A program made the translations under genes and the position numbers. Below, in pieces: positions 9,767-55,843 of a DNA stretch of 64,000 nt (the stretch's first letter is position 1; each line of letters begins with the position of its first letter). Source of the DNA: a virus; UHGV virus genome UHGV-1550212. The stretch is one strand, 5' to 3'. The notes under the pieces were generated by a model. The model ran no database searches. It was not told the origin of the DNA and worked only from the letters and a program-made list of their open reading frames with translations.

Positions 9767-12700
9767 TCAATTACATGCTGAATGTCCGCAGTTGGTGCAT
9801 CGAACACAGCCATCAAACTTGACCATGTCACCGCCGCATTCAGGACACTTTGCATACATCTTTGAGCCATCTTGAATATGCAGTTTCAATGCGCGCCCAA
9901 TTGCTTTGCAGAATGTTCCGACAGATGCAAAGCTTTTTGCAGTTTGGTCGACAATTTCGCCAAGGTCAATGCCATTGCGAAGCATCGTTGAGTACAGTCG
10001 AGTAATTGTTTGCTGCTCGTCTGAACCAAGACGTTCTGAGATATTATCATAGTGCTGCAAGAATGACAAATTATCACCAAGCTTGTAGTGCTTCTTATCA
10101 GTCTTTGTGATTGTCGTTTGTTCAATGCCTTGCAACTTGTCGAATTCATCTTTGTCAAGTTCAAATGCAAAGATTTCATAAGGTCGACCGTCATCACAGC
10201 CTACAAGAATACACCACTTGCGCTTATACACTGACACGCAATACACTGCAGCAGGCAATACTGGTTTTCGTTTTGAGCGATGACCAGATTGCAAGATGTG
10301 CGACTTGTCTTTTGACTGCTTGTCATCTTTTACGAGAACACCTGCACGTGAGCCATCTCGATAAATTGTGCAGCCTTTGCAGCCAGATTTCCATGCAGTC
10401 AGATAAATTTCACGAACAAGCTCTTTTGTTGCAGAGTTTGGAATGTTGACCGTTACAGAAATTGACGAGTCAATGTATTTTTGCAATGCACCTTGCAATT
10501 TCACCTTGCCAATCCAGTCAACATCTTCAGTAGTTGCCTTGTAGTATGGTGATTGAATAAGCAATTCATCAATGACTGCTTGCGGAGCATTTGACAACCA
10601 AGCTTTGATGCGAGACATTTCTGCTTCTGACCATTCAATGCCAGTATCTTTGACAAGAGTAAATTTGCCATCGCCAAGCTGCACTCGTTTACAAATCCAC
10701 TGCATCAACGGATAATGAACTACAGCGTATTCAATGAACTTGTCACCAGTAGTCTCATCAATGAAGTTGATGTCGGCCTCATTATCAACTGCAGTTGGCT
10801 TACGACGACGTTTATGTAGTGGCATAAATACGGGCTCAATACCAGACGTTGTCTGAGTCATCAAAGCTGTAGTGCCTGTTGGTGCAATTGTGGTCGTGTT
10901 AATGTTTCGACGGCCAAATTGCTGATAAGTTTTGATGTGCTCATCATCAATCAGTTCAGATAGCATACGCTGGATGAACTTTGATTGCACATCTGTGTCA
11001 TAGTCAAATATTGCAAATGAGCCACGAATCTTTGCCAAGTCAATTGACGCTTCATAAGTCGCCTTTACAAGCCATTGTTGCATAGTGACTGCGAAGTCAA
11101 TTGACTCCTGCGAGCCATAACGCAAGCCAAGCATCGCCATTGCATCGCCAAGCGCAAGGAAGCCCATGCCATATCGACGAGTGTTTGTCAGTTTATCATA
11201 AACTTTGTGCCACAAGTCAAGTTCAGTCTTTTTGATGTCAAAGTCTTCTTTATCTGACCGAACCTTTGCAATGATTCGTTGCACTGCTTCAATTTCAAGC
11301 TGCACAAGGTCATCCATGATGACTGCACAGTCATATGTATCTTTGTAGAATGTCTCAAAGTCAAATGATGCATCAGCAGTCCAAGGATTAAGCACATATG
11401 CAGTCAAATTGCGATGCGACAAAATGCAGCTTGCATATGCAGCGAGAGGCTGTTCACCGCAATTTAGTGTATTGACTACTTGCTTGTCATTGACAGCAAT
11501 AAAGAAATTGTGGAAGTCTTCTACTGTGCCATTGTACACATCTGCTTTGTTCATGTGACGTGTTGCAACGACTTTGACAATTGCATCACCAGTAGTGTCA
11601 ATGTCTGCATATTTGCTGCAGTCACCTAACGCTGCGCAAGCATCACAGCAATATGCTTGTTCACGATTGTCATAAGAAACTTCGAATTCTTTACCACAGC
11701 ACTCGCATTGTTTGATAACTGTGTTTCGTTCTGTTTTTACAAGCTCGTCAGTCTTCAATGCAATTGATAGCTTATCTGCGCTTGGCATATCAATTGCCCA
11801 CAATGAGTCATTTGTTGCAAGGTCAATTGCATTCTTGAAATCGCCATTAGCAAGCCTGAACTCATGATTTGCTGTGCAATTGATGACATGGCCGTCATCA
11901 AGCACAATTTGAATGATTTGCGCATTATGTGCAGTCAATCTGGGTCGACGCATTGTGCGCACAACGAGCTTGCCATTAGAGTCAAGACAATATACTGGAA
12001 TGTCTTCACCACTATCAGCAAGCTCTTTGAATGTCTTCAAACCTGAGCCATCAGCAACAAGTACTTTTGTGTCACCTGTGAAGCATGGATTTGTTGAGCG
12101 CTCTTCATACATTTTGCCATATGCTTTCGAGTTCGACTCTTCCATGATACGGTCCCAGAAGAACACGCCGGGTTCTGCAGATGCCCATACGTTATCAACA
12201 ATTTTGTCAAACAATGCTTTTGCATCTGATGTCTTATGCAGCTCTTGGCCATTAGAGCCACGCCAAACATGCTCAAACTGTTGTTCTGCAAGCACTGCAC
12301 GCATAAATGCATCAGTAAGCTTGATTGAAATGTTTGCGCCTGTGATTTTCGTCAAGTCCTTTTTTGCATCAATGAACTTATCTGCGTCAGGATGCTCAAT
12401 TGACAATGACAACATCAATGCGCCACGCCTGCCATTTTGTGCAACTTCTTTTGTTGATGTTGAAAAACGTTCCATAAATGACACTACACCAGAAGTTGTA
12501 ATAGCACTGTTATGCACTTCTACGTCTTCTGGACGAATGTGCGACAAATCATGACCAACGCCACCACGACGCTTCATCAACTGAACTTGCTCTTCATCTG
12601 TTTTGAAGATGCCGCCATATGAATCTGCGTCATTGCCAATTACATAGCAATTTGACATTGACGTGTAACCGCCAAGACCAATACCAGCCATTGGAGAACC

Positions 12701-12988
12701 ACCAAGCACAAACCGCTTAAAAGGCTCAAGTAAATATGCAAGTCGTTCTTTTGACAATACACGTTTGCCTGTCTGTTCTTCAAATTGTGATTCGATGCGG
12801 TCAAATTCATTGACCCAGCGCTCATGCATATCAGACAATGAGTGTTCATACAAATTGTCTTTGTCATGATGCAAGTATTTTGACATGCATATGTCAGCAG
12901 CCATTGAATCGCCTGTAAATTCATGCGTCAGTGTAGTGTGCACTTCAGCATATTCAGGCGACCCAATTTGAATGGGATGTTTTGTCAT
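9767..12988 (-). CDS. nrdJ: class II (adenosylcobalamin-type) ribonucleotide reductase with intein and C-terminal zinc ribbon
   Basis: active-site motif STNP/CGEQPL interrupted by intein; C-terminal CPECGG...CVRCTNCGHSAC zinc-ribbon tail; ATG at 12988 (track start 13048 is TTG). Confidence 0.75.
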   Translation of the reverse strand: MTKHPIQIGSPEYAEVHTTLTHEFTGDSMAADICMSKYLHHDKDNLYEHSLSDMHERWVNEFDRIESQFEEQTGKRVLSKERLAYLLEPFKRFVLGGSPMAGIGLGGYTSMSNCYVIGNDADSYGGIFKTDEEQVQLMKRRGGVGHDLSHIRPEDVEVHNSAITTSGVVSFMERFSTSTKEVAQNGRRGALMLSLSIEHPDADKFIDAKKDLTKITGANISIKLTDAFMRAVLAEQQFEHVWRGSNGQELHKTSDAKALFDKIVDNVWASAEPGVFFWDRIMEESNSKAYGKMYEERSTNPCFTGDTKVLVADGSGLKTFKELADSGEDIPVYCLDSNGKLVVRTMRRPRLTAHNAQIIQIVLDDGHVINCTANHEFRLANGDFKNAIDLATNDSLWAIDMPSADKLSIALKTDELVKTERNTVIKQCECCGKEFEVSYDNREQAYCCDACAALGDCSKYADIDTTGDAIVKVVATRHMNKADVYNGTVEDFHNFFIAVNDKQVVNTLNCGEQPLAAYASCILSHRNLTAYVLNPWTADASFDFETFYKDTYDCAVIMDDLVQLEIEAVQRIIAKVRSDKEDFDIKKTELDLWHKVYDKLTNTRRYGMGFLALGDAMAMLGLRYGSQESIDFAVTMQQWLVKATYEASIDLAKIRGSFAIFDYDTDVQSKFIQRMLSELIDDEHIKTYQQFGRRNINTTTIAPTGTTALMTQTTSGIEPVFMPLHKRRRKPTAVDNEADINFIDETTGDKFIEYAVVHYPLMQWICKRVQLGDGKFTLVKDTGIEWSEAEMSRIKAWLSNAPQAVIDELLIQSPYYKATTEDVDWIGKVKLQGALQKYIDSSISVTVNIPNSATKELVREIYLTAWKSGCKGCTIYRDGSRAGVLVKDDKQSKDKSHILQSGHRSKRKPVLPAAVYCVSVYKRKWCILVGCDDGRPYEIFAFELDKDEFDKLQGIEQTTITKTDKKHYKLGDNLSFLQHYDNISERLGSDEQQTITRLYSTMLRNGIDLGEIVDQTAKSFASVGTFCKAIGRALKLHIQDGSKMYAKCPECGGDMVKFDGCVRCTNCGHSACN
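11462..12085 (-). mobile_element. intein (~208 aa) inside nrdJ at the NPC|GE active-site motif
   Basis: begins CFTGDTKVLV (block A), TANHEF (block B), VYNGTVEDFHNFFIAVND (block F), ends ...NTLN followed by Cys+1; Cys-rich CECCGK...CCDAC insert instead of a LAGLIDADG domain. Confidence 0.65.
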
Positions 12989-13030
12989 TGTAACAGTGCA
13001 TTTAAGTGTTTTAACTGTTTTATGTATAAA

Positions 13031-13038
13031 TTGTACAA
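13031..13038 (-). promoter_or_regulatory. TTGTACAA promoter-associated motif upstream of nrdJ
   Basis: about 45 nt upstream of ATG 12988, followed by TTTATACAT. Confidence 0.4.
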
Positions 13039-13058
13039 CAATGGGCAAAATTTTGCAT

Positions 13059-16294: not shown

Positions 16295-16398
16295 AGGGAT
16301 GGCGAACTGTACACATTGTGCATATTGTACACACTATATATTGTATGTGTTTGTATATGTATTTTAACAGGCATTAGCAAACAATACAAAAACAACAA

Positions 16399-16436
16399 AT
16401 GAAAGTGGCCCAGATGTATATCTGAGCCACTTTCAT
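16399..16436 (-). terminator. terminator hairpin
   Basis: 16-bp stem with one mismatch (atgaaagtggcccaga / tctgagccactttcat), T-rich 3' flank on minus strand. Confidence 0.45.
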
Positions 16437-16455
16437 TTATCGTATAGTCTGTTTA

Positions 16456-18111
16456 TTATGCAAGTAGTGTTTGCAGCATATAGCAGCCTTTTGCATATGC
16501 AACAATTGCTTTTGCAGGATTGTTCTTGATGTATGCAGGTAACTTGAGCCAAATCAATGACACAAGTACTTTCTGTCGCAGCGTCAAATCAAGTTCATCG
16601 ATATTGTAGCCAATGACTTTTGCTCTGACATCGCCATCAACATAATCGAATTGCTGATATGCTGACTGATTGAATGCATCATAGCCAGACAAGCCATACG
16701 CAAACTTTGCAATGTCATAATCGATGTCACCTGTCATCTTAACGTCACCAAAGTAGCCTCTTGGGTCAATGAACATGCATTTTGATGAATCTGCACTGAA
16801 CATCGTATTTGACGTATTCGGGTCACCATGAATGAATGACCAATTTTCGCATGCATAGTCAATTGAATCTTCTTGCGACAAGAAGAGTCTTAACTTGCTC
16901 ATCAGTTCATCGAATGGCATCAATGCAATGCCATTGAATGATTTGATGCCTGCTACAAGTGACTTGACTTCAGCATATCTTGCAATAGTAGTCTCAATGT
17001 ACTCTTTGCGCATTGCGTCAATCATTTGTTGTCTGCTAACGGGCCAAATCTCGTCATTGTCAAGATTGCTTGCATGCAATTCATTGATTGACTGCTTGAA
17101 TGTCGTCATGCAGCCGCGCGCAATTGCAGCATATCTACGCTCAATATCAACTTTATTGAGGAACTGATGCACAGTCACTCCGTTAATTTTCGACATTTTG
17201 ATGAAGTCTTCACCAGTTTCAAATATCGATGGAATGACTGTTGATTCTGCATTCATCGCATGACGATACCACTCTTGCTCTTTCTGAATGAGTGCCAAGC
17301 CTCGAGCATTTGTAGCAGATTTTGTAACAATATCGCCATCAATGCTAATGCTATTGAAATATCGCACTTCATTGTCACGTGCAGTCTTGACTGCTTCACT
17401 GACAAATACACCACGTTCACCATATGAATGACAACCAGCAATTTCATATCTGTCTACAAATGTAACGTTGGTCATCAAATCAGCAAAATCAGCATTGCTA
17501 TCATTGTGCTGCATATCAATGACATTGTTATGAAATGCTGCAGGTACATAGTATGCACCGACAATGCCACTATGATATGTTGACTCACATATGTGGTCAA
17601 GCATATATGATTCTGCATCTGCATATGAACCTACTTTGTTGTACACTTCTGCAGGAATAAGATGAAGTCTGCAATCAATATCATTTGACGTGCAGCAAGT
17701 TATGCAGCCAGTTTTGAATTTGTCAAGTGGCAATTCAATATCGCCAAGCCACACATCAGACCAATGATAGAATACATTGCATTCACCAATGTTGTTAGCA
17801 ATAAACATTGCTACATCTGCGCATGCTTTTGCTGAGCCATCAGCTTTGTCATGCACAATAGTTGACAATTTGATATCTGGCGCAAATGCTGCAGCATGTT
17901 CATGAATCATTGCTGCATGAGTGTCATTTGCACATGCAACAATGAATTCATCAAACTGTTGAGCATAGGATGTCAAAATCTTTGCGAGCACTGTTTGTTT
18001 GCCTGCATTTACAAGCGTTTTTGGAATGTAGTTATTACCAGTCATTGTTGACATGCGAGTGCCCAAACCACATGCAATGATTGCTAACACATTTGGATAT
18101 TGATGAGACAT
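16456..18111 (-). CDS. bifunctional sugar-phosphate nucleotidyltransferase / APH-ChoK-fold kinase
   Basis: N-terminal GLGTRM nucleotidyltransferase motif (LAIIACGLGTRMSTM); C-terminal kinase motifs FIHGDPNTSN and MFIDPRG...DIDYDIAKF; ATG at 18111. Confidence 0.7.
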   Translation of the reverse strand: MSHQYPNVLAIIACGLGTRMSTMTGNNYIPKTLVNAGKQTVLAKILTSYAQQFDEFIVACANDTHAAMIHEHAAAFAPDIKLSTIVHDKADGSAKACADVAMFIANNIGECNVFYHWSDVWLGDIELPLDKFKTGCITCCTSNDIDCRLHLIPAEVYNKVGSYADAESYMLDHICESTYHSGIVGAYYVPAAFHNNVIDMQHNDSNADFADLMTNVTFVDRYEIAGCHSYGERGVFVSEAVKTARDNEVRYFNSISIDGDIVTKSATNARGLALIQKEQEWYRHAMNAESTVIPSIFETGEDFIKMSKINGVTVHQFLNKVDIERRYAAIARGCMTTFKQSINELHASNLDNDEIWPVSRQQMIDAMRKEYIETTIARYAEVKSLVAGIKSFNGIALMPFDELMSKLRLFLSQEDSIDYACENWSFIHGDPNTSNTMFSADSSKCMFIDPRGYFGDVKMTGDIDYDIAKFAYGLSGYDAFNQSAYQQFDYVDGDVRAKVIGYNIDELDLTLRQKVLVSLIWLKLPAYIKNNPAKAIVAYAKGCYMLQTLLA

Positions 18112-18137
18112 TGTGTAGTGTTGCTTATATGAAAATA

Positions 18138-18145
18138 TTGTACAA
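18138..18145 (-). promoter_or_regulatory. TTGTACAA promoter-associated motif upstream of nucleotidyltransferase-kinase gene
   Basis: lies in a ~40-nt block nearly identical to 25369..25408. Confidence 0.4.
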
Positions 18146-18182
18146 CATGCATTGCAAATTTGCAATGATACAACATGCATTG

Positions 18183-18440
18183 CTATTTTGCAAGATGACA
18201 ATGCTTACGCCATACTGCAATTTCAACATCTGTAGCAAAATCAAAGTGCAAGCCATGCAATTGTTTCATGTCATATTGACGTCTTGCAATATACTTGTTG
18301 CCAACTCGCTCAACAACAGAACCAACTTCTACTACATTTTTAGAATGTCGTGGCTCATGTAATGGCACTCTGAATATGTATCTGCCATCTAATGTTGACA
18401 TTATATCACCATTGTCAATTATGCCTGTTTGCCTGCTCAT
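18183..18440 (-). CDS. hypothetical protein (85 aa)
   Basis: ORF track. Confidence 0.4.
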   Translation of the reverse strand: MSRQTGIIDNGDIMSTLDGRYIFRVPLHEPRHSKNVVEVGSVVERVGNKYIARRQYDMKQLHGLHFDFATDVEIAVWRKHCHLAK

Positions 18441-18455
18441 TGTTAAAGCATCAAG

Positions 18456-19130
18456 TTATTTTTGAATGTCTGCAAGTTCTGCTGCAATTCTATTGTATGC
18501 TAATATGTGCTTAATTGCGTCATCAAGCAGCTTGTTAAATTCAAGATACTGCTGCAGCACTTTGTCATTCTGCAATGACTGCTCAAGCGCAGCATAATCA
18601 CCTGCAAACGGGCGATTCATTGACAGACCAAAGTTCTTCGCGCATTTAGCATAAAAAGCATTGTACTCTGCAGCATCAATCGGTGTCGCGTCATGAGCAT
18701 TAAGCGCACTTTCACTGAGCAATGGGATTGTAAGTTTTCTGCAACGAGTAAACTCATCTTTGTCGACATACAGCACAGAACAACGAACGACATGGTCTTC
18801 TGCATTCATGCCGCCAGTCAACAAATCCATGTCCCAATCGAAGCAAATGTTGTAGATGTACAGCATCACAGTTCGATGTTTTTTGTAGACAAATTTCCAG
18901 TATCGAGACTTCTTGCATATATCTTTGATATGCTGCAAGTCATGCATAAATTTGTCATACGATATCGCATCAAAGCGAGGCAATGATTTGTTGTCAATGA
19001 ATGCGTTTGCTGCATCTGCACAACGTTTGAATTCTGCTTGATGCATATTTAGCTCTTCTGTGCGCTTTGCTACAAGTGCTTCATATTCTGCTTTTGCAAG
19101 TTCAAGTCTTGCTTCATACAAACTTTGCAT
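18456..19130 (-). CDS. hypothetical protein (224 aa)
   Basis: ORF track; N-terminal coiled-coil-like segment. Confidence 0.45.
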   Translation of the reverse strand: MQSLYEARLELAKAEYEALVAKRTEELNMHQAEFKRCADAANAFIDNKSLPRFDAISYDKFMHDLQHIKDICKKSRYWKFVYKKHRTVMLYIYNICFDWDMDLLTGGMNAEDHVVRCSVLYVDKDEFTRCRKLTIPLLSESALNAHDATPIDAAEYNAFYAKCAKNFGLSMNRPFAGDYAALEQSLQNDKVLQQYLEFNKLLDDAIKHILAYNRIAAELADIQK

Positions 19131-19155
19131 ATTTGTGTACGTTTATGAGTTTCTG

Positions 19156-19611
19156 TTAAAATTTGCCATCTGCTACTTGAAAGCATCGATAGCCAAGCTC
19201 TCGCCATTTAGCAACCATAGAATCACGGTCTTCAAGTATAAACGCGATTTGTTTCAGCTCATCTTCAGACAAGGCTTCTACAAGCAATTCAGGCTTGACA
19301 AGTGTATCATGACGTTTATCACCATCTTTTCGCATAAGAATTTGCGGATTGACGATTCTGCCATCTGTATGCTGTGCAAGCCAAATTTCTGTCATTTGTC
19401 TACAGCTTTCACGACGACCTGTGCAGAATATGATTCTGTAGCCAACTTGCTGCAAATCGCAAAGCAAGTCAAGCACAGTCATAATGGGCATGTCTTCATG
19501 ACAGTGTGCATAAAACGCATCCCAATCTTTGTTTGATTGTTGAAGATATTTTAGACGGTCGCCAACTTTTGAAATTGTTCCGTCAATGTCGCATATAATG
19601 ATATTTGCCAT
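19156..19611 (-). CDS. HAD-superfamily phosphatase
   Basis: motif I IIICDIDGTI (DxDGT), downstream Thr and acidic motifs; ATG at 19611. Confidence 0.6.
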   Translation of the reverse strand: MANIIICDIDGTISKVGDRLKYLQQSNKDWDAFYAHCHEDMPIMTVLDLLCDLQQVGYRIIFCTGRRESCRQMTEIWLAQHTDGRIVNPQILMRKDGDKRHDTLVKPELLVEALSEDELKQIAFILEDRDSMVAKWRELGYRCFQVADGKF

Positions 19612-19629
19612 GATGTGTATGCTTATGAA

Positions 19630-19656
19630 AGGAAGAGCTCAATTGAGCTCTTCCTG
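19630..19656 (-). terminator. terminator hairpin (palindrome aggaagagctcaattgagctcttcct)
   Basis: perfect inverted repeat with the same caattg loop as hairpins at 22852 and 35654. Confidence 0.55.
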
Positions 19657-19685
19657 ATAGTCAACTTGATAAACCTCTACGAAAA

Positions 19686-20558
19686 TCAAGCCTGACTACT
19701 TTTGTTGATTACGAGATACTTGTATCGTTCTTTGATTGTGATGTTCTTTGATTTTGCAGCCTCGATTTCTTTGCGTTCCTTGGAGGAATAGTTGAACTTG
19801 ATATAGTCGGAGAACAATTCGGGCTTATCTGCTACTTCATTGTTCTTGACTTCTTTTACAAGAGTTTGCTGAAACTCATTGATTGTAGTGAAACCGAGGA
19901 ATGACTGGAACTTGTTAAGCGGAAACAGCTTATCTGTGTTGTCCTCGAATGTCGGGAATTCGTCAGAATACGTAATTTCAATTTGGTCTACAAAATATCT
20001 GAGTTTTTCCCAGGGTTCCTTGCCAATGAGGAGAATGTTCTGATGGTCGAGTTTTTCCTCGAACATTTCCAGGAGACATTCGTATGATTTTACGAGACGA
20101 ACTCCAGGATATGTAATTGATGCAATTGAACGAGGTTTGTGAGTCGTCTTAACTTCTTTATTGTACGTTTCCTCGTCAATGCAATAGATGTATCGCTTAA
20201 CCTTGTCGTATTCTTTAGGAAGATAGTTGTTGTCAAGGAATTGCTTGTCAACTACAATGAAACTGAAAGGATAGAGTTCATTGAATCGTTGGCGAAGCTG
20301 TTCTGTTGCAAGGAAGAAATGCGAGCCATCTTTTGCTGCAAATTCCATATTTGAATTGCATCCTGCATATGCAATGTATCTGTTTCGCTTCCATTTGAGG
20401 AATCGACTTACCAGGTTCTTTTCGAAGATGTCCTTGTATTTGAAGTTAGTGTCCCAGTACTCCTTAACAATTCCATCTTGCATTTTTCTTGACAATTTTG
20501 AATTGTCTACCGGCCTATCAGTAAAAACTGAAGGTTTGTTTGCGTTGTATAATCCCAT
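19686..20558 (-). CDS. hypothetical protein (290 aa) with atypical C-ending codon usage
   Basis: ORF track; TATAAATA late-promoter-like box and conserved leader upstream; codon usage resembles the capsid gene rather than neighbours. Confidence 0.5.
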   Translation of the reverse strand: MGLYNANKPSVFTDRPVDNSKLSRKMQDGIVKEYWDTNFKYKDIFEKNLVSRFLKWKRNRYIAYAGCNSNMEFAAKDGSHFFLATEQLRQRFNELYPFSFIVVDKQFLDNNYLPKEYDKVKRYIYCIDEETYNKEVKTTHKPRSIASITYPGVRLVKSYECLLEMFEEKLDHQNILLIGKEPWEKLRYFVDQIEITYSDEFPTFEDNTDKLFPLNKFQSFLGFTTINEFQQTLVKEVKNNEVADKPELFSDYIKFNYSSKERKEIEAAKSKNITIKERYKYLVINKSSQA

Positions 20559-20653
20559 TGTAGTAGAGGTTTGTTAATTTATTATTTATAGATATATAAT
20601 ACTACGACAATGCAAATTTTGCACTGTCGTAGCATAAAAGTTTACACATTTTT

Positions 20654-21004
20654 TTACAAATGTGAGAACAACTTATTCGTAACTCGTTCAATTGCAAATT
20701 CAACACCATATTGCAATAACTGTTCAGTGCTAAATGACCTTGCTGCACGTGCAGGTGCTACAATATGCTTTGATTGCGCATACAAAATCCAAGTATCAGT
20801 TGGCCTGTCATAAGTAACTGTCAGTCTGTATGTTTGCAACACAAACTCTTGACTAAAGTGTTCTCTTCGCCAAAACTCTGGTTCTGCAATATGCAAATCA
20901 AACCAAGCAAACTCAAACAAGATTTGTTCGAGTTGACGTTGATGCTTGCGTTCAGCACGATATGTACCGCTGAACAGATACTTGATGATGTTCATCATTT
21001 GCAA
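20654..21004 (-). CDS. hypothetical protein (116 aa)
   Basis: ORF track. Confidence 0.4.
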   Translation of the reverse strand: MQMMNIIKYLFSGTYRAERKHQRQLEQILFEFAWFDLHIAEPEFWRREHFSQEFVLQTYRLTVTYDRPTDTWILYAQSKHIVAPARAARSFSTEQLLQYGVEFAIERVTNKLFSHL

Positions 21005-21711
21005 TCATTATGCTGAGTATGAATTGCGTTGCCCTGTGAATCCAAGCGAATCGCAGTTTGCATTGCGACTTCAGATTGTATTTGTTCTGCCACATAAGAC
21101 TTTCCGATGCCCCCGCCTGGATGTACTGCCCTGAACCTATCAAAATCTGTGCCCAGCTGCTCAGCAACAGACAGCATGATATTATCACCAACGAGCTGAG
21201 ATGCCAGCAGAGAATTCGTCGGAATTCGCGGATTGCGTGAGTCCTCATCAATTGCTGGCAATGACACAAGCAAATCTGCCCAAGCATTCATATCAGTGAC
21301 CTTGCCACCAGCAAAGTTGATGCCAATGATTTGGCAATTCGGTGCAAGCAATTCACGATGTTCACGAAGATATGTCATTGCAGTTGCAAGTTCAGATGTG
21401 TTGCCAGTTTTGCTGAATGCTACAATAACATCGTTGTTTCGAATCATGCCAAAGTCACCATGCATTGCATGCACTGCATCAAAGAATGATGCGTTCAATG
21501 ACAAGCAATAACATGTTGCAGCAAGTTTTTCACAGCAATGCACATTTTTACCAATGCCAGTGAACAACACTTTGCCATCAGACTTCAATGCATTTGCAAT
21601 GATATCTGCTGCAATACCAAGAACGTCATATTGCGCATCTGAAATATTGTTGTGCCATGCTACAAGCGATTCAACTGATGCAGCAATGCCTTTGTGTACA
21701 AGTGTTTTCAT
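20995..21711 (-). CDS. SIS-domain sugar-phosphate isomerase (KdsD/KpsF arabinose-5-phosphate isomerase-like, no CBS domains)
   Basis: GKVLFTGIGKN...KLAAT...FFDAVHAMHGDFGM...DVIVAFSKTGNTSEL matches the KdsD SIS pattern; ATG at 21711. Confidence 0.6.
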   Translation of the reverse strand: MKTLVHKGIAASVESLVAWHNNISDAQYDVLGIAADIIANALKSDGKVLFTGIGKNVHCCEKLAATCYCLSLNASFFDAVHAMHGDFGMIRNNDVIVAFSKTGNTSELATAMTYLREHRELLAPNCQIIGINFAGGKVTDMNAWADLLVSLPAIDEDSRNPRIPTNSLLASQLVGDNIMLSVAEQLGTDFDRFRAVHPGGGIGKSYVAEQIQSEVAMQTAIRLDSQGNAIHTQHNDCK

Positions 21712-21730
21712 TTTTGTGATGTTTGAAGGT

Positions 21731-22411
21731 TCAAAGAAACTTGAGTTTTGACAGCATTTCAGTGTCTTGTTCAGTGTTGATGCAGAGCTCTTGCATAACA
21801 TCAAGCAATGCAGACCATAATTGCTCATATGATTTGCCGTTGTTCATAACAACAGCGTCAACAAACAGCTCATCTATGTGTTGTTCACTTGAATGACTGA
21901 TGTTTTGCTTGACATCATCATTGACAATTTTAATGAGTTTGAAACCTCTTGAACGCAATGCGGTCGCTTCGTTTGGATATCGACAATCGCCAACACAAAT
22001 AAGTGCTTCATTATGACAATTGTCAAGTCGATACAGCAAACTGTTTACAAAGAAGTCTTCACCATACAGTTTCTTGAGCGCATCTGAAACATCAAGATGC
22101 ACATTGCGAATCGATGAACCTGCAAACTCTACAAAGTGTTTCTGTTTGAATGCATTGTTATGCAAGTCTTGCAAATTGTAGCCCAGTGTACTTGCAATAA
22201 ATGCTTTCAGTGGCTTTGCAAAGCACTCATATGCAAGATTGCAGCCACATGGCCAGTATGGATTTGCTTCAATTTGCTGCAAAGTTGATGTGTAAATGCC
22301 ATCAATTACAGTGAACTTGCATTTAGTCATGACTCGAATCATCGCCCAAGCCAAATCTTTGCCTACGCCTGCATGACCAACAAGCGCAATTTTTGTTATG
22401 TCATCATTCAT
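21731..22411 (-). CDS. P-loop nucleotide kinase-like protein (dNMP kinase-like)
   Basis: Walker A-like KIALVGHAGVGKD near N-terminus. Confidence 0.45.
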   Translation of the reverse strand: MNDDITKIALVGHAGVGKDLAWAMIRVMTKCKFTVIDGIYTSTLQQIEANPYWPCGCNLAYECFAKPLKAFIASTLGYNLQDLHNNAFKQKHFVEFAGSSIRNVHLDVSDALKKLYGEDFFVNSLLYRLDNCHNEALICVGDCRYPNEATALRSRGFKLIKIVNDDVKQNISHSSEQHIDELFVDAVVMNNGKSYEQLWSALLDVMQELCINTEQDTEMLSKLKFL

Positions 22412-22897: not shown

Positions 22898-23470
22898 TTA
22901 AAATTTGGATAGACTCGTAGTATCAAGCGATGCAATTGAATCAATGCGCAAAGAATCTGCTATAGGTGCGCAATCATCAATTGGGTGACTTGCAGGCTTA
23001 ACTTTGAGCATATACATTCTGCAGTTGCCAATATCTATAAGGGAACCAGAACGTGTCATATAATCACAGCCCAAAATGCCAACGACTTCATGACCAAGTG
23101 CTTTGCTAAGCTGAACTAAAATAGGCGAAATGTCATCAATAAACATGTCCAGCTCTACAGAGCCATTTGCGATAGTAATGTCTGCATCTATTGCATGAGA
23201 TACTTGAAGAGCCCCTGTGACATATGATAGTCGCTTAACTGAACGCTCTTTGCCAACCATGTCATGAGTAGCAACAAATGTGCTATCAATCAATGACAAT
23301 GACGCGCCAGTATCAAGCAAAAGCCATGCATCGACACCATTGACATTTGCATGTACAAATGGCAGGCTCTTCAAAACAATCGGTGACTGTGATTGCTGCA
23401 ATGCTTCATTGCACATTGTCAGCGTCATAATCGCAAGTAGCGATATAAGAAACAATTTGAATGCTTTCAT
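22898..23470 (-). CDS. secreted retropepsin-like aspartic protease
   Basis: N-terminal signal-peptide-like MKAFKLFLISLLAIMTLTMC; catalytic motif LLLDTGASLSLI. Confidence 0.55.
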   Translation of the reverse strand: MKAFKLFLISLLAIMTLTMCNEALQQSQSPIVLKSLPFVHANVNGVDAWLLLDTGASLSLIDSTFVATHDMVGKERSVKRLSYVTGALQVSHAIDADITIANGSVELDMFIDDISPILVQLSKALGHEVVGILGCDYMTRSGSLIDIGNCRMYMLKVKPASHPIDDCAPIADSLRIDSIASLDTTSLSKF

Positions 23471-25482: not shown

Positions 25483-26505
25483 TCATTGTTGTTTATGCCA
25501 GCCATATGATGCCTGACCAGCATCATACACTTCTACGAAGCCATGGTCGTACATAAAATCTTCATTACGAGTGCCCTTGCCCCCATTAGTGCCAAGAATA
25601 CGGTCTGCGCCATGCATAAGCAGCATATTATTTGTGACATGTTGCTTTGTCAGCATATTGAACCAGTGTTTGCTATATGACAAGCCAAGACCATCAAAGC
25701 CCAGCTTTGTGTACACACCACCGTCAAACTTGCTTAAATCACAATATGATAACACAGATTCAGGGTCATATGTCTTGATAAAGTGCTTAAAGATTCGTTC
25801 AGCACCACCAACAACTTTGGTTGCTGCACAAAGACGTAGCAATTCATATTGATAGCGCTTATTGTATCGTGGACGACCAAATGTCATAAGTTGATGAATG
25901 ACATAACCACCAAGCAACTCAAGTGGATGACCTTCAATCAACGCAAGATTGATAAAATTGCCTGAGCACTTGCCTTGCAAATGATGTTCAATCAAAAATT
26001 GATTTGCAGTATACTTGTCAATTTCAACAACTTTAAGCTTGCGAGCATATACAATCTTTGATTTGTCTACGATTTGATGCTTGATGTGATTGATAACTTT
26101 CTTGGCGTCATCCCAGTCCCACACATGAATGCAATGAAAGCCTGCTGATTTGGCGATGTCTGTTTTCTTTGCATGAATATCACAAGGCAAATGCGAATCT
26201 TTTGCATCATGCATAAACAGATGTTCAAATGAATGTGTGCTGTTATGTGAAAATGCAGGATTGATGTTAATGACAATATTGTCATGTCGAAAATCGAAGA
26301 CTTCATCGCCAATGACAAAGTTGCGCTCAAAATTTATACCGACATGTTTGAGTAACACTTGATGCCACACATCTTTATAGGCTGATTCAAGCTTGCTTAG
26401 CTCATCACAGTTTGCAATGTTTTTGTAACGTTGAATAGCAGCATCAAAGTCAAGATTGACTTCAGCGTAGTCTGCATTTTTATCGTAGTGAAATTTTGAG
26501 CTCAT
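25483..26505 (-). CDS. Vsr/DUF559-like nuclease-domain protein (paralog family; N-terminal nuclease module, extra C-terminal domain)
   Basis: NIVININPAFSHNS and GFHCIHVWDWDD match the family module; C-terminal GFVEVYDAGQ tail; ATG at 26505. Confidence 0.5.
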   Translation of the reverse strand: MSSKFHYDKNADYAEVNLDFDAAIQRYKNIANCDELSKLESAYKDVWHQVLLKHVGINFERNFVIGDEVFDFRHDNIVININPAFSHNSTHSFEHLFMHDAKDSHLPCDIHAKKTDIAKSAGFHCIHVWDWDDAKKVINHIKHQIVDKSKIVYARKLKVVEIDKYTANQFLIEHHLQGKCSGNFINLALIEGHPLELLGGYVIHQLMTFGRPRYNKRYQYELLRLCAATKVVGGAERIFKHFIKTYDPESVLSYCDLSKFDGGVYTKLGFDGLGLSYSKHWFNMLTKQHVTNNMLLMHGADRILGTNGGKGTRNEDFMYDHGFVEVYDAGQASYGWHKQQ

Positions 26506-26528
26506 GTGTATAATTTTGTATGAGATTA

Positions 26529-26536
26529 TTGTACAA
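26529..26536 (-). promoter_or_regulatory. TTGTACAA promoter-associated motif
   Basis: about 20 nt upstream of ATG 26505. Confidence 0.4.
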
Positions 26537-26612
26537 CATGCAAATGCATGTTGCATTTGATGCAAAGTACTGCGTACACAACATAAAGTACAAGTTTGTC
26601 TTTTGATAGACT

Positions 26613-27674
26613 TTACTTTGTATTGCTACGCGTCATTGTTAAATGACCGCAATCATACACATCAACTTCTGTTTTGCCAAGCATGCATGTATGACAATTT
26701 ATTTTGAAATCTGCTGCAGCGTAATCAGGATAGTTTAGTGGAGATTCTTTTGACAAATCAATTTCAATTGTGTCAGTAGTTTTAAGCTGTTCAGTACCTG
26801 CAATGATATCTGCAATAAGATTGATAACTTCTTCTTGTGAATCCCAATCAAACACAGTTATGCAACGATAGCCTACATCAAGTGCAAGTTTTGTTTTATT
26901 GTAATGGTATTGCGCACCAATAACATTGTTGTCTTTTGCTCGACCAGTTAAATATGCAAAACTAACAGTGCAGTTGTGCGTAACTGTTGGACAAATTTCT
27001 ATAAGTAACTTTGCAGGCTCATACTGCAAATCATATGTTTGATTATTGATGTTAAACTCGTACTGTGTATCAATTGCCAACTGTCGTAATAACGCATCAT
27101 GCCACATCATATTACATTTAGAAATTGTTTTGGATGACAATCTGCATTGAGGCAATTGACATGGCCAATCTACGCCGTACATTTGTTGTGTTGTTTGACG
27201 CATTTTGTTAACATCACCAAAATGATTGCCATATCGATGCTCTTTGGTTTTAAGCGACTGCTCAATATTGACATTGCCTACACAACCATAACGTTCAAGT
27301 TTTGTTGCAGCAGTTTTGCTAACATCACCATGTCCATTACCAAATTTGGCGACTTTAGTTGCAAGTATTTTATGACTTGGGCCAAATGCATTGCCATACA
27401 ATTCTTGTTTAGTCGCAAGCATTTTGTCGATATTACAACCAGCGCCATAAGTGTTATGCATAGTTTGCATACGCTGTCGAATAAATTTTGGCACAGATAA
27501 AGGACTTTCTACACCATATTTGCGTAAGCAACTGATTTTGCATGCGTACTTTTGCTTGATGACAGAATGTGCATTTCGACGTCCTATGTAAGTATTTTCT
27601 GATGTAGCAGCAAGCTCTGCATCTCTAAGAACTTCAAGTGCAGCAATTCGTGCTTCAATTTCTTCAGATGTCAT
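26613..27674 (-). CDS. RYG-repeat / Vsr-DUF559-like nuclease (putative free-standing homing endonuclease)
   Basis: seven ~21-aa tandem repeats each with R/K-Y-G (KYG, TYG, LYG, KFG, RYG, RYG, MYG); C-terminal LLIEICPTVTHNCT...GYRCITVFDWDS...VDVYDCGH. Confidence 0.55.
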   Translation of the reverse strand: MTSEEIEARIAALEVLRDAELAATSENTYIGRRNAHSVIKQKYACKISCLRKYGVESPLSVPKFIRQRMQTMHNTYGAGCNIDKMLATKQELYGNAFGPSHKILATKVAKFGNGHGDVSKTAATKLERYGCVGNVNIEQSLKTKEHRYGNHFGDVNKMRQTTQQMYGVDWPCQLPQCRLSSKTISKCNMMWHDALLRQLAIDTQYEFNINNQTYDLQYEPAKLLIEICPTVTHNCTVSFAYLTGRAKDNNVIGAQYHYNKTKLALDVGYRCITVFDWDSQEEVINLIADIIAGTEQLKTTDTIEIDLSKESPLNYPDYAAADFKINCHTCMLGKTEVDVYDCGHLTMTRSNTK

Positions 27675-27695
27675 TTTTTAATAGCATATTGATAA

Positions 27696-27703
27696 TTGTA
27701 CAA
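27696..27703 (-). promoter_or_regulatory. TTGTACAA promoter-associated motif
   Basis: 22 nt upstream of ATG 27674. Confidence 0.4.
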
Positions 27704-27760
27704 CATACAAATGCGTTTTGCATTTTTGATGTAGCAATTGCTTGCACAGTTTGCAAAAAA

Positions 27761-27791
27761 GAACCGCTTGCAATCTAATTGCAAGCGGTTC
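27761..27791 (-). terminator. rho-independent terminator downstream of the major capsid gene region
   Basis: 13-bp stem gaaccgcttgcaa / ttgcaagcggttc, 5-nt loop, followed by T6 on the minus strand. Confidence 0.6.
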
Positions 27792-27840
27792 AATGAATAC
27801 GTTTGTCAGAAACTGTCAATGTGTGCAATCGCTTGAAGAG

Positions 27841-27963
27841 TTAGCTGAACAGCTTGTTGATGCGATTGCTGCATTGGTGACTACCAAGCAGCCCATTGAA
27901 CATTGGATTCGACATCAACGTCTTTGTGGTTGTTGTTGAACTCACCAAGCCAGCAAGTATCAT
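27841..27963 (-). CDS. possible small ORF (40 aa) in capsid-gene 3' region
   Basis: ATG at 27963, TAA at 27841..27843; GC-rich codon usage like the capsid gene; weak. Confidence 0.2.
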   Translation of the reverse strand: MILAGLVSSTTTTKTLMSNPMFNGLLGSHQCSNRINKLFS

Positions 27964-28021
27964 TTAGCAAGTTTCCAAACTTAACGTACTTGTCGTTCCC
28001 CGGCTTGGGTGGCGCAGGTTG

Positions 28022-29737
28022 TCAAATCCAGCCGTAGTCGCTGTGGATAGCGAAGGTGAGATAAGCCAACTCGGGATACATACCCGTCTCCGCGAGAGCG
28101 TAATCCGACTCAATCAGCAACTTAGGTGCTGCTGTACCCTCAGCGGTTAATTCCACACTTGATGCAAGGTCATATGGCATGAATACACATCCCTGGTTGA
28201 CATTCTCTACGTCAACGCCGTCAGCAGTCTTGTTCGTACGAAGAACGAGAACAGTGTTATCGTTCAGCGGCTGCTTAGGATTGCAATAGATTTTAATGCC
28301 AGCCAAGTCACCTGCATAATACAGGTTCTTGTTGTCCTGTACCAGCGTATTGTCAAGAGCTGCAACAAAGTTCTTCTGAGCCTTAATTGCAACCAAGGCA
28401 ATCGTATTGACCACAGCAGCATCACCAGCACCGAAACGCGACAGGTTGCCAATGATTGTCGAAGCAGCCAGGATACGAGTTGCGATACGAGCCTGACGGG
28501 TAATCTGGTTCTCAGCCGAGCTGTTCGATTCAGCGTTAGGAACCATGCCGAACTCAGCCGTGCGGTCTACACCCATCTTGTCAACGAATGCAGGAGCCTG
28601 GAATTCCGAGAATGCCTTGGCAGTCGAACCAGCGTAGCCAATGTACAAGTTCAGGTTGTAGCCCTGAGCAGCCAACAGCTGAGCATGTGTCGTAACACCA
28701 AGTGCACGCATGCGCTTCAGACCATTGTCGTTGATTGACTGCGTGATTTCATTCTGCATTGCATTCTTGATGATTGCAACTGCATCCAAACCGCGAGCAC
28801 GGAGGTCCTTAACCTGGCGACGAGTCAGAGCACCCCAAGTCTGGTACGTCTTAACTTCGATAGCCTTTGAGAAGGTGCGGAGCTCCAGCATGTTCGGGTT
28901 GCCAGCCTCAGCCTCAGAACGAGACATTGGATTGCCGTCAAGGTCATCCATTGCAGCGAAGCCGTGGATGTGTTCGTCACCAGCCGAAACCAGGTCGAAC
29001 ATAACCTCAGTCATGCCAGTCAGCATGTCAGTTACAGCACCTGTAGCGTCAACCGAGTAGATTTTCGATGCAGCCATTGCAACATCAGCCAACGACTTGT
29101 CAGGAGCAACAGTCATTGCGCCACCAGCGCCAACGGTATATACGCCTTCATTGCGAACTACGAGGTAGCCTGCAACACGCGATACCTGTACGAACGTTAC
29201 CTTGGCAGCAAGCTCACCAGCAGCTGAACCGCCGATGTACAGAACTTGACCCTTCTTGAGGCCATGAACCATTGTCTGCGAAGCAACATTGTACAACTCC
29301 TTCCACTTGATGAGGAAGTAGCGAGGACCCTTGGCTGCGTTCAACTTGCCACCACCATACACGTAGTCTACATAGTCCAGCTGAACCAGCGGGCTGTATA
29401 CAGGAATGGCCGGGAGCAGGTCGAACAGAATCGTGTTGGCTGCGATGTTCATGTTCAGAGCCAGAACATTGGCAGCTACATCGATTGAACCACGCTTACG
29501 CGACGGGTCATGGAACTGTGCTTGCGTACCTGGGTCAGCAGGGAAAGCGACCGGACCTACGCCATTGAGATTCTGCGAATACGTCGACTCAAACGACTCG
29601 TTCATATACTGAACGTTCTGAGCGATTGATGCGAGCAGATACTTCTTAGCGGGCGAAAGCTTGGAGTCAAACGACTCATCAAGAACAGGGCCCCACTTTT
29701 TCAGCAATGCATCAATCTGTGTACGTTTTGCGTTCAT
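28022..29737 (-). CDS. major capsid protein (T4 gp23-like)
   Basis: N-terminus MNAKRTQIDALLKKWGPVLDE parallels the gp23 N-terminal pattern; 571 aa; markedly GC-rich C-ending codon usage; followed by a strong terminator. Confidence 0.7.
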   Translation of the reverse strand: MNAKRTQIDALLKKWGPVLDESFDSKLSPAKKYLLASIAQNVQYMNESFESTYSQNLNGVGPVAFPADPGTQAQFHDPSRKRGSIDVAANVLALNMNIAANTILFDLLPAIPVYSPLVQLDYVDYVYGGGKLNAAKGPRYFLIKWKELYNVASQTMVHGLKKGQVLYIGGSAAGELAAKVTFVQVSRVAGYLVVRNEGVYTVGAGGAMTVAPDKSLADVAMAASKIYSVDATGAVTDMLTGMTEVMFDLVSAGDEHIHGFAAMDDLDGNPMSRSEAEAGNPNMLELRTFSKAIEVKTYQTWGALTRRQVKDLRARGLDAVAIIKNAMQNEITQSINDNGLKRMRALGVTTHAQLLAAQGYNLNLYIGYAGSTAKAFSEFQAPAFVDKMGVDRTAEFGMVPNAESNSSAENQITRQARIATRILAASTIIGNLSRFGAGDAAVVNTIALVAIKAQKNFVAALDNTLVQDNKNLYYAGDLAGIKIYCNPKQPLNDNTVLVLRTNKTADGVDVENVNQGCVFMPYDLASSVELTAEGTAAPKLLIESDYALAETGMYPELAYLTFAIHSDYGWI

Positions 29738-29825
29738 GATTGAATTTGTTTGTTATTGAAAGTGAAACATATATTTCTGTATAATATGTATAGAACTACT
29801 GACATTGATTGAATTGTGAAAATGG

Positions 29826-31217
29826 TCATTTTTCAATCTTTTTGAGCAATGCATGACCACAATCATAGACTTCGACGAAGCCTGACGCAATCATTTGTTG
29901 CCTATCAAACCCATTGTCAAGTAGATGTTCCCATGTCTTTGTATTGTGCCAATGCAATTGAATTGATGATTTATCTGTACTAAGCTGCGGATTTTTTGAA
30001 AAGTCTGCACAGTCAATTTTGTCACCGTTAAGATGCTTACGAATGCATTCAATGACAGTGTCGTGGTCATCCCAGTCCCATATTGTTATGCATACATAGC
30101 CATGTTGTAATGCAATTTGTGTCTTGTCAAAATGACTATCATGTCTCTTTGGCCTATTACGCTTTGTGCGCTTAGTAATATATGCATATGAGTATGTTGA
30201 GTTATGCGAAAATGTTGGATTCACTTCAATCAACAATTTGCAATGTTCATTTTCATAATGCAAGTCATATGAAAAGCCAAGTAGCTTAACATCGTCATAA
30301 CTGCAATCAATGTTAAGCTCTTGTTGCAACTTATCATGCCAAAATTGATTTGGCTTAGATATTATGTTGCCTTGACTGTTTATGCAGTTAGAAGTCATAC
30401 ATGACCATGGCACGCCATAACGCTCAATGTTTGTTTTGTTTGCACTTGCTTGAATTTTTGACAATGGGCCCCATGGATGACCATACTTTGCACGCTTGAC
30501 ATCTGCACCACGTTTAGCAACTTCACGATAATCGCCATAACGCTCTTTTCTTGTAGCAAGCATTTTTGCAATATTGCCCGCGCCACGAGAGCCATATCTA
30601 AGCTCTTTAGTCTTTTGAGCTTTGGCGTAATCACCACAAAATGCATTGCCATATCGAGCAATTTTTGTTGCTTTCATTTTTTCAATGTTGCCTGCACCAG
30701 CATTGCCATAACGTTCAAGTTTTGTTTGCTTGGACAATTCAACATTGCCAAATTTGTTGCCATAACGCACTAATTTTGTTTCTTGTGAACGTTGACGTAT
30801 TTCTTGCACTTGTGCACAGTATTCTACGCCATAGCGTTTTAACATTGTTATTCGTTGATTATATGCACGTTTAATAGGTGCATGCGATGTTCGTTTTGGC
30901 CCATATTTAACAAACTCAGTAGATGCAAGTAATTCATCACGCTCACGTTCAAGTTCTGCAATTCGTTGTTGTATATGGACATCATACACAGGCTGCTCAG
31001 AAATGTCATCAATAGCTGTCGTTTCTAATTTAGCAAGTTTGCGTTTAAGAGCTTTTGTTGTTTGCGTGCAGCTCATTTTTATCAATGCATGTGCATGTCT
31101 GCCACAGTCAAGTACAATGTTAGGCTCATTTGCAAGGCGTTCATCACGTTTACATTCTGCAGCATGTATTGCATCAATAAGTTGTCGTCTCTTTACATTA
31201 TATTCGTCTTGTGTCAT
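29826..31217 (-). CDS. RYG-repeat / Vsr-DUF559-like nuclease (putative homing endonuclease)
   Basis: tandem repeats (KRYG, VRYG, ERYG, ARYG, LRYG, ERYG, AKYG, ERYG); C-terminal FSYDLHY...LLIEVNPTFSHNS...GYVCITIWDWDD...FVEVYDCGH. Confidence 0.55.
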   Translation of the reverse strand: MTQDEYNVKRRQLIDAIHAAECKRDERLANEPNIVLDCGRHAHALIKMSCTQTTKALKRKLAKLETTAIDDISEQPVYDVHIQQRIAELERERDELLASTEFVKYGPKRTSHAPIKRAYNQRITMLKRYGVEYCAQVQEIRQRSQETKLVRYGNKFGNVELSKQTKLERYGNAGAGNIEKMKATKIARYGNAFCGDYAKAQKTKELRYGSRGAGNIAKMLATRKERYGDYREVAKRGADVKRAKYGHPWGPLSKIQASANKTNIERYGVPWSCMTSNCINSQGNIISKPNQFWHDKLQQELNIDCSYDDVKLLGFSYDLHYENEHCKLLIEVNPTFSHNSTYSYAYITKRTKRNRPKRHDSHFDKTQIALQHGYVCITIWDWDDHDTVIECIRKHLNGDKIDCADFSKNPQLSTDKSSIQLHWHNTKTWEHLLDNGFDRQQMIASGFVEVYDCGHALLKKIEK

Positions 31218-55842: not shown

Positions 55843-55843
55843 A

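Follow-up and report, generated by a model that had tools for sequence, protein, structure and literature searches.

Here we describe a gene cluster at positions 16456-22411 of a 64,000-nucleotide stretch (the window) of the virus genome UHGV-1550212, in which a nucleotidyltransferase-kinase fusion, a HAD phosphatase, a SIS isomerase and a deoxynucleoside monophosphate (dNMP) kinase are encoded together, all genes of the interval being on the minus strand. We give a probability of about 0.55 to the reading that this cluster is one arm, supplying the sugar donor, of a two-locus system hypermodifying the phage's own DNA, the second locus being located 16-31 kb past the window end on the same contig and the same strand. 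This reading is built on domain identities, homologies, folds, active-site residues and synteny, from which we infer all of the chemistry, the identity of the sugar and its acceptor. A preliminary description of the stretch had already proposed a nucleoside diphosphate (NDP)-sugar pathway feeding glycosylation of 5-hydroxymethylcytosine (hmC). Its four proteins are indeed present in the interval, all scoring above Pfam cut-offs, as are the motifs it quoted (GLGTRM, HGDPNTSN, IDPRG, DIDYD, DIDGT and a P-loop). The pathway itself gains support from the homology of the fusion to RB69 gp52:53 and AfhE, from that of the isomerase to RB69 gp55, and from a gp42-like thymidylate synthase (TS) homologue and GT-B glycosyltransferases.

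The known arabinosyl-5-hydroxycytosine set comprises gp55, gp52:53 and gp51 of RB69, gp83, gp82 and gp81 of DLP3, and AfhE and AfhF of HY126; among these, RB69 gp55 and DLP3 gp83 are arabinose-5-phosphate isomerases, and AfhE and AfhF are stated to have shown pathway activities (PMC13326640). In the published order of steps, the isomerase is followed by a C1 kinase acting on arabinose 5-phosphate (Ara5P), a 5-phosphatase (HAD gp51/AfhF) and a nucleotidyltransferase yielding UDP-arabinose (PMC13326640). The preliminary description had placed the phosphatase before the kinase, which is at odds with this order. In the scheme proposed here, the SIS enzyme would convert host ribulose 5-phosphate to D-arabinose 5-phosphate, and the APH-like C-terminal kinase of the fusion would phosphorylate C1 to give arabinose 1,5-bisphosphate. 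The 5-phosphate would be removed by the PNKP-type HAD of the window or by a KdsC-like HAD of the second locus, and the N-terminal nucleotidyltransferase of the fusion would combine arabinose 1-phosphate and UTP into UDP-arabinose. In a parallel branch, a MazG-type pyrophosphatase would supply dCMP, the TS homologue outside the window would convert it to 5-hydroxymethyl-dCMP, the gp1-type dNMP kinase and/or a Tmk-like kinase would phosphorylate the product, and the phage polymerase would put the modified nucleotide into DNA. Two GT-B paralogues outside the window would then transfer the sugar to the hydroxymethyl group in DNA. The outcome would be a pentosyl (arabinosyl) 5-hydroxymethylcytosine, which could carry more than one sugar and may protect the DNA from host nucleases.

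The fusion gene (16456-18111, minus strand) encodes an N-terminal sugar-1-phosphate nucleotidyltransferase and a C-terminal APH-like sugar kinase within 551 aa, the start at 18111 being that given by gene callers on identical metagenomic contigs; the full open reading frame (ORF; 16456-18201) has 581 aa. The N-terminal domain matches Pfam NTP_transferase at residues 41-151 (24.4 bits against a cut-off of 21.2), and the protein matches phrog_4098 across its whole length (9.5e-76). In phmmer searches it matched RB69 gp52 (1.7e-29), RB69 gp53 (1.5e-6), PTm1 ORF165 (2.3e-56) and MA9V-1 gp178 (1.4e-58). It is full-length collinear with ORF165, with gp178 and with gp52:53, the last being a single gene split through a sequencing error. 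The GxGTR signature is retained, ACGLGTRM of the fusion aligning with the same motif in MA9V-1, PTm1 and RB69 gp53. Homology of the kinase domain is indicated by FIHGDPNTSN, IDPRGYFG and GDIDYD, which correspond to the motifs IHGDxNxxN, IDPRGxFG and GDxxYDxAK conserved in the alignment with MA9V-1, PTm1 and RB69. The APH/ChoK kinase fold assigned earlier is thus upheld by these motifs and by the homology to RB69 gp52, although the window fusion itself has no Pfam APH match; the fusion of a divergent relative (L060) has precomputed NTP_transf_3 and APH matches, both weak. A phmmer search of PDB sequences with the fusion gave no match. By tblastn, it was found in 372 phage records, 303 with at least 80% query cover, all at 28-30% identity and including groups around JS98, Klebsiella phage Marfa and Yersinia phage TG1. 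For its HY126 homologue AfhE, both Ara5P kinase and UDP-arabinose pyrophosphorylase activities have been reported, and the family has been characterised only in phages with arabosylated DNA (PMC13326640). The activity predicted from this homology is the synthesis of UDP-arabinose from arabinose phosphates.

The isomerase gene (20995-21711, minus strand) encodes a 238-aa single-domain SIS protein, predicted to be a D-arabinose-5-phosphate isomerase producing Ara5P from ribulose 5-phosphate; gene callers start it at 21711, and the longer ORF used earlier extends to 21828. It matches Pfam SIS (5.7e-8; 33.1 bits against a cut-off of 25), phrog_5670 'arabinose 5-phosphate isomerase' (1.2e-28) and arabinose-5-phosphate isomerases in the PDB (5uqi, 2.2e-15; also 3etn and 2xhz). 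Alignment to 5uqi reveals the conserved segments GIGKN, HGDFGM, SKTGNTSE and HPGGG, and phmmer links the protein to RB69 gp55 (1.4e-16) and MA9V-1 gp175 (1.1e-35). Against NCBIfam models, it reached 9.7e-21 for the KpsF/GutQ subfamily, under the cut-off of that model, and 66.6-74.5 bits for the KdsD/GutQ equivalogs (cut-offs of 203.7-505), with the match confined to the SIS part. These low scores and the lack of a CBS pair are as expected for an enzyme of the RB69 gp55 type, the protein resembling the CBS-less 3etn, 5uqi and gp55 and not KdsD/GutQ proper. The fusion and isomerase genes are also near each other in RB69 and in Chryseobacterium phage MA9V-1, indicating that their grouping is not due to chance.

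Next, we looked for the acceptor side of the system. The window corresponds exactly to positions 64001-128000 of the 174,628-bp contig IMGVR_UViG_3300045988_152288, of which positions 25,293-165,014 were walked. Pfam and phmmer scans of the window ORFs checked (including Pfam on 20 further ORFs) revealed no hydroxymethylase or glycosyltransferase, as the preliminary description had stated, and phmmer/tblastn queries with RB69 gp48 and PTm1 ORF167 found no TS homologue there. It had suggested searching the rest of the genome, and a TS homologue with gp42 residues and GT-B glycosyltransferases are both encoded on the same contig, in the second locus (coordinates below are window-equivalent). The cytosine-specific TS homologue (80069-81088; Pfam Thymidylat_synt, 9.3e-24) is distinct from a canonical ThyA (75787-76839), which was assigned by sequence and by active-site alignment with E. 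coli ThyA.

To identify the base involved, 13 diagnostic positions of the TS homologue were read from an alignment in E. coli ThyA numbering. They are W80, D143, C146, T147, M165, R166, S167, N168, D169, G173, D177, H207 and Y209, and are identical at 13 of 13 to those of gp42 from the T4-like phage AR1. The N177D change of cytosine specificity, an acidic residue 143, the catalytic Cys and D169 are all among them. D169N, the signature of 5-hydroxy-dCMP synthases (PMC13326640), is absent from this protein; RB69 gp48 and PTm1 ORF167 possess N169 together with V80, V173, F209 and E143. Because all 13 positions match gp42 and D169 is kept, the TS homologue is predicted to be a dCMP hydroxymethylase and not a hydroxylase. 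The AR1 gp42 pattern was also found in MA9V-2 gp146 and in most of 24 distinct IMG/VR relatives, three of which differ at positions 80 and 168.

The glycosyltransferase candidates GT415 (86783-88009) and GT518 (91060-92616) are paralogues (phmmer 1.3e-44). The predicted structure is of the GT-B type with T4 DNA beta-glucosyltransferase (BGT) as its best structural neighbour, and homologues have GT47/exostosin-type Pfam matches. Sequence and profile searches of the PDB with the candidates gave no match, and no sequence similarity to RB69 gp46:47, BGT or the T4 alpha-glucosyltransferase (AGT) was detected. No counterpart of RB69 gp51, gp46, gp47 or gp50 was detected in either the window or the second locus. 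The GT-B enzymes here appear to belong to a family other than that of the known arabinosyl-5-hydroxycytosine systems, whose GT-B DNA arabinosyltransferases are RB69 gp46:47 and DLP3 gp79. Duplicated pairs are present in the same locus, a 388-aa paralogue (u388) accompanying GT518 and a 395-aa paralogue (u395) accompanying GT415; in this island (86783-95863) they flank the Tmk-like kinase and a 246-aa membrane-like protein. A motif resembling the C-terminal segment of GT-B enzymes is present in a 460-aa protein of the locus. The presence of several glycosyltransferases suggests more than one sugar per base.

The second locus further encodes an SbcCD-like nuclease (82435-86361; assigned from sequence, with a Metallophos match in relatives), a Tmk-like kinase (90445-91014; weak Thymidylate_kin/dNK matches, and 1.7e-24 to the MA9V-2 'thymidylate kinase') and a dCMP deaminase (93751-94476; Pfam, 6.1e-21). 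Part of the locus, namely the KdsC-like phosphatase, kinase, TS homologue and helicase, is carried by MA9V-2, and the same genes are given for MA9V-1 (PMC10537231). In two divergent metagenomic phages the TS homologue is still accompanied by the glycosyltransferase and the SbcCD-like nuclease, and in one of them also by the dCMP deaminase and a kinase. Inside the window, the 226-aa dNMP kinase (21731-22411, minus strand) is of the T4 gp1 type found in the T4 hmC pathway, with matches to Pfam DNMK (29.1 bits against a cut-off of 27.1) and phrog_139 'dNMP kinase' (4.9e-28) and a weak one to PDB 1dek (0.076). In a divergent relative (L062), a homologue is encoded immediately upstream of the fusion. 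The preliminary description had grouped this kinase with the sugar enzymes; its presence and family hold, and it most likely serves modified dCMP, not the sugar branch. A 124-aa MazG-family NTP pyrophosphohydrolase (55468-55842, minus strand; Pfam MazG, 8.2e-9; PDB matches weak) is a candidate dCTPase, and beside it is encoded a 163-aa dUTPase/dCTP-deaminase-like protein (55844-56335, minus strand; Pfam dUTPase, 7.1e-11, and DCD, 3.4e-7). This pair (55468-56335) fits the nucleotide branch.

The phosphatase step is less clear-cut. The stand-alone HAD protein of the window (19156-19611, minus strand; 151 aa) is of the PNKP phosphatase-domain type (Pfam HAD_PNKP, 2e-30; motif DIDGT), and its PDB matches are Pnkp1 (4xrp, 5.9e-15) and T4 Pnk (1ltq, 2.5e-8). 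By contrast, RB69 gp51 has no Pfam match, and it matched no window ORF in phmmer --max searches. The window HAD is at most a functional analogue of gp51/AfhF; as judged from its sequence, it is a candidate arabinose-1,5-bisphosphate 5-phosphatase, or else a nucleotide or 3'-phosphate phosphatase. Its homologues in five viral contigs of IMG/VR abut or overlap a TS homologue of the gp42 pattern followed by a dUTPase, with no sugar genes within 10 kb, a context that points to a nucleotide-level role of this HAD family. The HAD (DxDGT) described earlier is real, and its place as a step of the sugar pathway is uncertain. A phosphatase adjoins the fusion in three lineages, and the three are non-homologous (HAD gp51 in RB69, a histidine phosphatase in PTm1 and the PNKP-type HAD here), suggesting that the pathway needs one. 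An equally good candidate for the 5-phosphatase is the 370-aa protein with a KdsC-like HAD N-domain (80976-82067; PDB 2p9j, 1e-4; KdsC 3ij5, 1.8e-3) encoded beside the synthase gene, which has no match in the RB69 locus. About 0.7 kb ahead of the window start, at about 62.9-63.4 kb of the contig (L010/L011 11379-11876), lies the gene of another small HAD protein (Pfam HAD_SAK_2), which brings the stand-alone HAD phosphatases of the genome to at least three.

A conserved partner of the fusion had been overlooked in the preliminary description. It is a 290-aa protein (19686-20558, minus strand) with a divergent dihydrofolate reductase (DHFR) fold, whose family has 16 detectable relatives among 1.84 billion representatives. 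In four lineages (the window, L060, L062 and MA9V-1), including those that lack SIS and HAD genes, its gene is no more than about 5 kb away from the fusion. Comparison with DHFR by hhalign is collinear but weak (E 0.0088, probability 4.6%), and sequence similarity to the DHFR/RibD C-terminal reductase fold is marginal. The GRxT/GGG NADPH motifs and the catalytic Asp/Glu of helix B are not conserved, being replaced by DKQF, GKE and L88 opposite D27 in a low-confidence profile alignment, while R91, E94, D104, F107 and Y188 are invariant in the family. The DHFR fold rules this protein out as the missing glycosyltransferase or hydroxymethylase, and a canonical DHFR elsewhere in the genome, as in MA9V-1, rules it out as the phage's plain DHFR. 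This tiny and highly divergent family is a candidate new component of the pathway.

We then compared the system with known ones. Like the RB69/DLP3/HY126 set, the cluster combines a single-domain isomerase, a homologous fusion, a small phosphatase and a nucleotide kinase, and, like the arabinosyl-5-hydroxycytosine phages, the genome encodes a cytosine-specific TS homologue, GT-B transferases, a Tmk-like kinase and a MazG-type pyrophosphatase. It differs from those phages in several respects: its synthase is gp42-like and keeps D169, its phosphatase shows no relation to gp51/AfhF, and its glycosyltransferases resemble GT47 and BGT and gave no sequence match to gp46:47. A DHFR-fold partner is encoded but no gp50 homologue, the genes are in two loci about 60 kb apart, and the phage is outside Straboviridae. 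The TS homologue, the gp1-family kinase, a GT-B transferase with BGT as best structural match, the dCMP deaminase, the canonical ThyA and the canonical DHFR are shared with T4, which has gp42, gp1, gp56 and alpha- and beta-glucosyltransferases. Unlike T4, this phage encodes an arabinose-type donor pathway, its glycosyltransferases lack sequence similarity to BGT/AGT, and only a MazG-family protein, no gp56 homologue, was identified.

Related arrangements are found in cultured phages, at identities of only 28-44% to MA9V-1/-2 and PTm1. In MA9V-1, the fusion (gp178), isomerase (gp175), DHFR-fold protein (gp172) and canonical DHFR (gp174) are encoded together; gp172 has 427 aa with extra terminal domains, compared with 290 aa here. 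The MA9V-1 paper does not mention DNA modification (PMC10537231). In PTm1 (AP019524.1, 120913-123851), as here, the fusion adjoins a phosphatase, and a TS homologue follows in the row; unlike here, the phosphatase is of the histidine family and the synthase is of the 5-hydroxycytosine type (D169N, with V80, V173 and F209). From this set, the DNA of PTm1, a marine Bacteroidota phage, is predicted to contain arabinosyl-5-hydroxycytosine; Tenacibaculum is not mentioned in the paper on the donor pathway (PMC13326640).

Several observations weigh against the cluster being a donor arm for DNA modification. The arabinosylated phage DNAs described so far are all based on 5-hydroxycytosine, with D169N synthases, and no precedent was met in the literature searched for an AfhE-type donor pathway combined with an hmC-type synthase. 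The window HAD may belong to nucleotide metabolism, and the published pathway offers no role for the conserved DHFR-fold partner, the element that it explains least. T4-type glycosyltransferases use host UDP-glucose, T4 itself encoding no sugar-nucleotide enzymes, and those encoded here need not use a phage-made donor. The identity of only 28-30% to the characterised fusion family means that sugar and nucleotide specificity could differ, and in two divergent relatives (L060 and L062) neither a phage isomerase nor a HAD is encoded less than 10 kb from the fusion. These last two points, together with the SIS protein falling far under the KdsD/GutQ equivalog cut-offs, would also suit a system of the same architecture and DNA target whose sugar is another pentose, a pentitol or a hexose, the fusion and the SIS enzyme having diverged and the DHFR-fold protein adding a step such as reduction or tailoring of the sugar phosphate or the heterocycle. 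We consider such a substitution unlikely, as the SIS protein matches arabinose-5-phosphate isomerases best and has their common motifs intact, and the loss of NADPH motifs and catalytic acid makes a reductase role doubtful. Gram-negative hosts make Ara5P with their own KdsD, so the absence of an isomerase near the fusion in relatives is no argument against arabinose.

It is somewhat less probable still that the cluster is not one pathway, with only the SIS enzyme and the fusion acting on sugar and the HAD, the dNMP kinase and the DHFR-fold protein being nucleotide-metabolism genes of an early region. The resemblance of the HAD to the 3'-phosphatase domains of T4 Pnk and Pnkp1, the position of its homologues beside TS homologue and dUTPase genes away from sugar genes, the T4 gp1 family of the kinase, the flanking ribonucleotide reductase and topoisomerase genes, and the dispensability of HAD and SIS genes as neighbours in L060 and L062 all favour this view. 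It overlaps largely with the donor-arm explanation, in which the kinase is already in the nucleotide branch; a phosphatase of one of three unrelated folds beside the fusion in three lineages suggests a need for one, and the canonical DHFR elsewhere means that the 290-aa protein is not simply the phage DHFR. An NDP-sugar destined for a target other than DNA, through virion protein glycosylation or remodelling of host lipopolysaccharide or capsule with the isomerase and the KdsC-like HAD as Kdo auxiliaries, appears improbable. The KdsD-like isomerase and the KdsC-like HAD are both Kdo-pathway enzymes, the glycosyltransferase homologues match a GT47/exostosin-type family known for polysaccharide synthesis, and a GT-B fold alone does not reveal the acceptor. 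However, no KdsA/KdsB homologue turned up in the inspected contig parts (25,293-165,014), in which no dedicated search for them was made. The glycosyltransferase genes lie among those for the dCMP deaminase, Tmk-like kinase, SbcCD-like nuclease and TS homologue, a grouping that recurs in divergent relatives, and their best structural neighbour is a DNA glucosyltransferase. The restriction of the characterised fusion family to phages with arabosylated DNA (PMC13326640) argues in the same direction.

A donor arm for DNA hypermodification is of a kind already known; new here are the lineage, the partnership with an hmC-type enzyme, glycosyltransferases that resemble BGT, a non-orthologous phosphatase and the DHFR-fold partner. 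It was only in 2025-2026 that the arabinose donor pathway was elucidated, in T4-like phages and always alongside a 5-hydroxycytosine synthase, and its occurrence with a T4-type hydroxymethylase in a distant uncultivated lineage predicts a new modified base. More tentatively, and at rather less than even odds, we suggest that this lineage of about 175 kb and MA9V-1/-2 replace cytosine with an undescribed arabinose-O-glycosylated 5-hydroxymethylcytosine, made by a T4-type hydroxymethylase and an AfhE-type pathway, with a repurposed DHFR-fold protein performing or scaffolding an extra step. The arabinose might be in chains, because there are two glycosyltransferase paralogues plus other candidates. 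Such a base would be the 'arabinosyl-hmC' that had at one time been proposed for RB69 and was later revised. If the suggestion is true, then in phage DNA hypermodification the module for the sugar and that for the base recombine independently of each other. The finding supports the idea that arabosylation and base hydroxylation evolved separately (PMC13326640). Phage DNA hypermodifications decide which restriction, CRISPR and type IV defences can be effective against a phage and also provide new enzymes, and the cultured relatives MA9V-1/-2 make the prediction directly testable.

Besides the 290-aa protein, three more genes of the interval had been missed, encoding 85 aa (18183-18440), 224 aa (18456-19130) and 114 aa (20654-20998), all on the minus strand and without Pfam or PHROG match. 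The 85- and 114-aa ORFs are called as genes in L004-L009, the former being kept in all close relatives and the latter having a 4-nt overlap with the SIS stop. The 224-aa ORFan, between the HAD and fusion genes, has only 3 homologues, each at least 91% identical, among 5.8 billion clusters. Intergenic spacing in the cluster is tight, ranging from this 4-nt overlap to a 95-nt gap. A terminator-like hairpin with a 20-bp stem followed by a T-run (16394-16441, minus strand; a pattern match from a consensus scan) lies 15 nt past the fusion stop codon and is the probable end of the transcription unit; it and the close packing count in favour of the donor-arm reading. A sigma-70 promoter scan performed no better than on shuffled sequence.

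The window also encodes the topoisomerase II large subunit, a ribonucleotide reductase with a probable intein, a gp23-like capsid protein, tail sheath, portal, prohead protease and a split family-B DNA polymerase, and the phage is a large myovirus. It is uncultivated, and the comparison with T4-like phages in the preliminary description needs qualifying: it is not T4-like in the strict sense and not a member of Straboviridae, its relatives being large myoviruses of Bacteroidota. Megablast of the region against 50,697 phage records gave no nucleotide-level match; at the protein level, Chryseobacterium phages MA9V-1/-2 and Tenacibaculum phage PTm1 are nearest. A sister contig from the same metagenome (IMGVR_UViG_3300045988_149023; 175,564 bp) is 97-100% identical with coordinates shifted by about 33-35 kb, which fits a complete, circularly permuted or terminally redundant genome.

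Other observations concern the surroundings of the cluster. A retropepsin-like aspartyl protease with a hydrophobic N-terminus (22898-23470; Pfam Asp_protease_2, 1.6e-6) is encoded just upstream, a position kept in all relatives examined (L004-L009, L060 and L062). The ribonucleotide reductase large subunit (9767-13048; 1093 aa) has a weak Intein_splicing match and probably carries an intein. In the split polymerase, four genes, including those of the MazG and dUTPase/DCD-like proteins, separate the exonuclease gene (56724-58229) from the polymerase gene (53138-54430). Adjoining the exonuclease gene is one for a 136-aa protein (58245-58655; Pfam PF22751 'Active DUF488-N3 subclade', 3.4e-9), a homologue of which (1e-7) lies two genes upstream of the DHFR-fold gene and the fusion in L060. 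Around the capsid and portal genes, homing/HNH endonuclease-like ORFs and three DUF7487 paralogues (25483-31217, 42982-44220 and 48405-49604) look like mobile-element insertions in the structural module.

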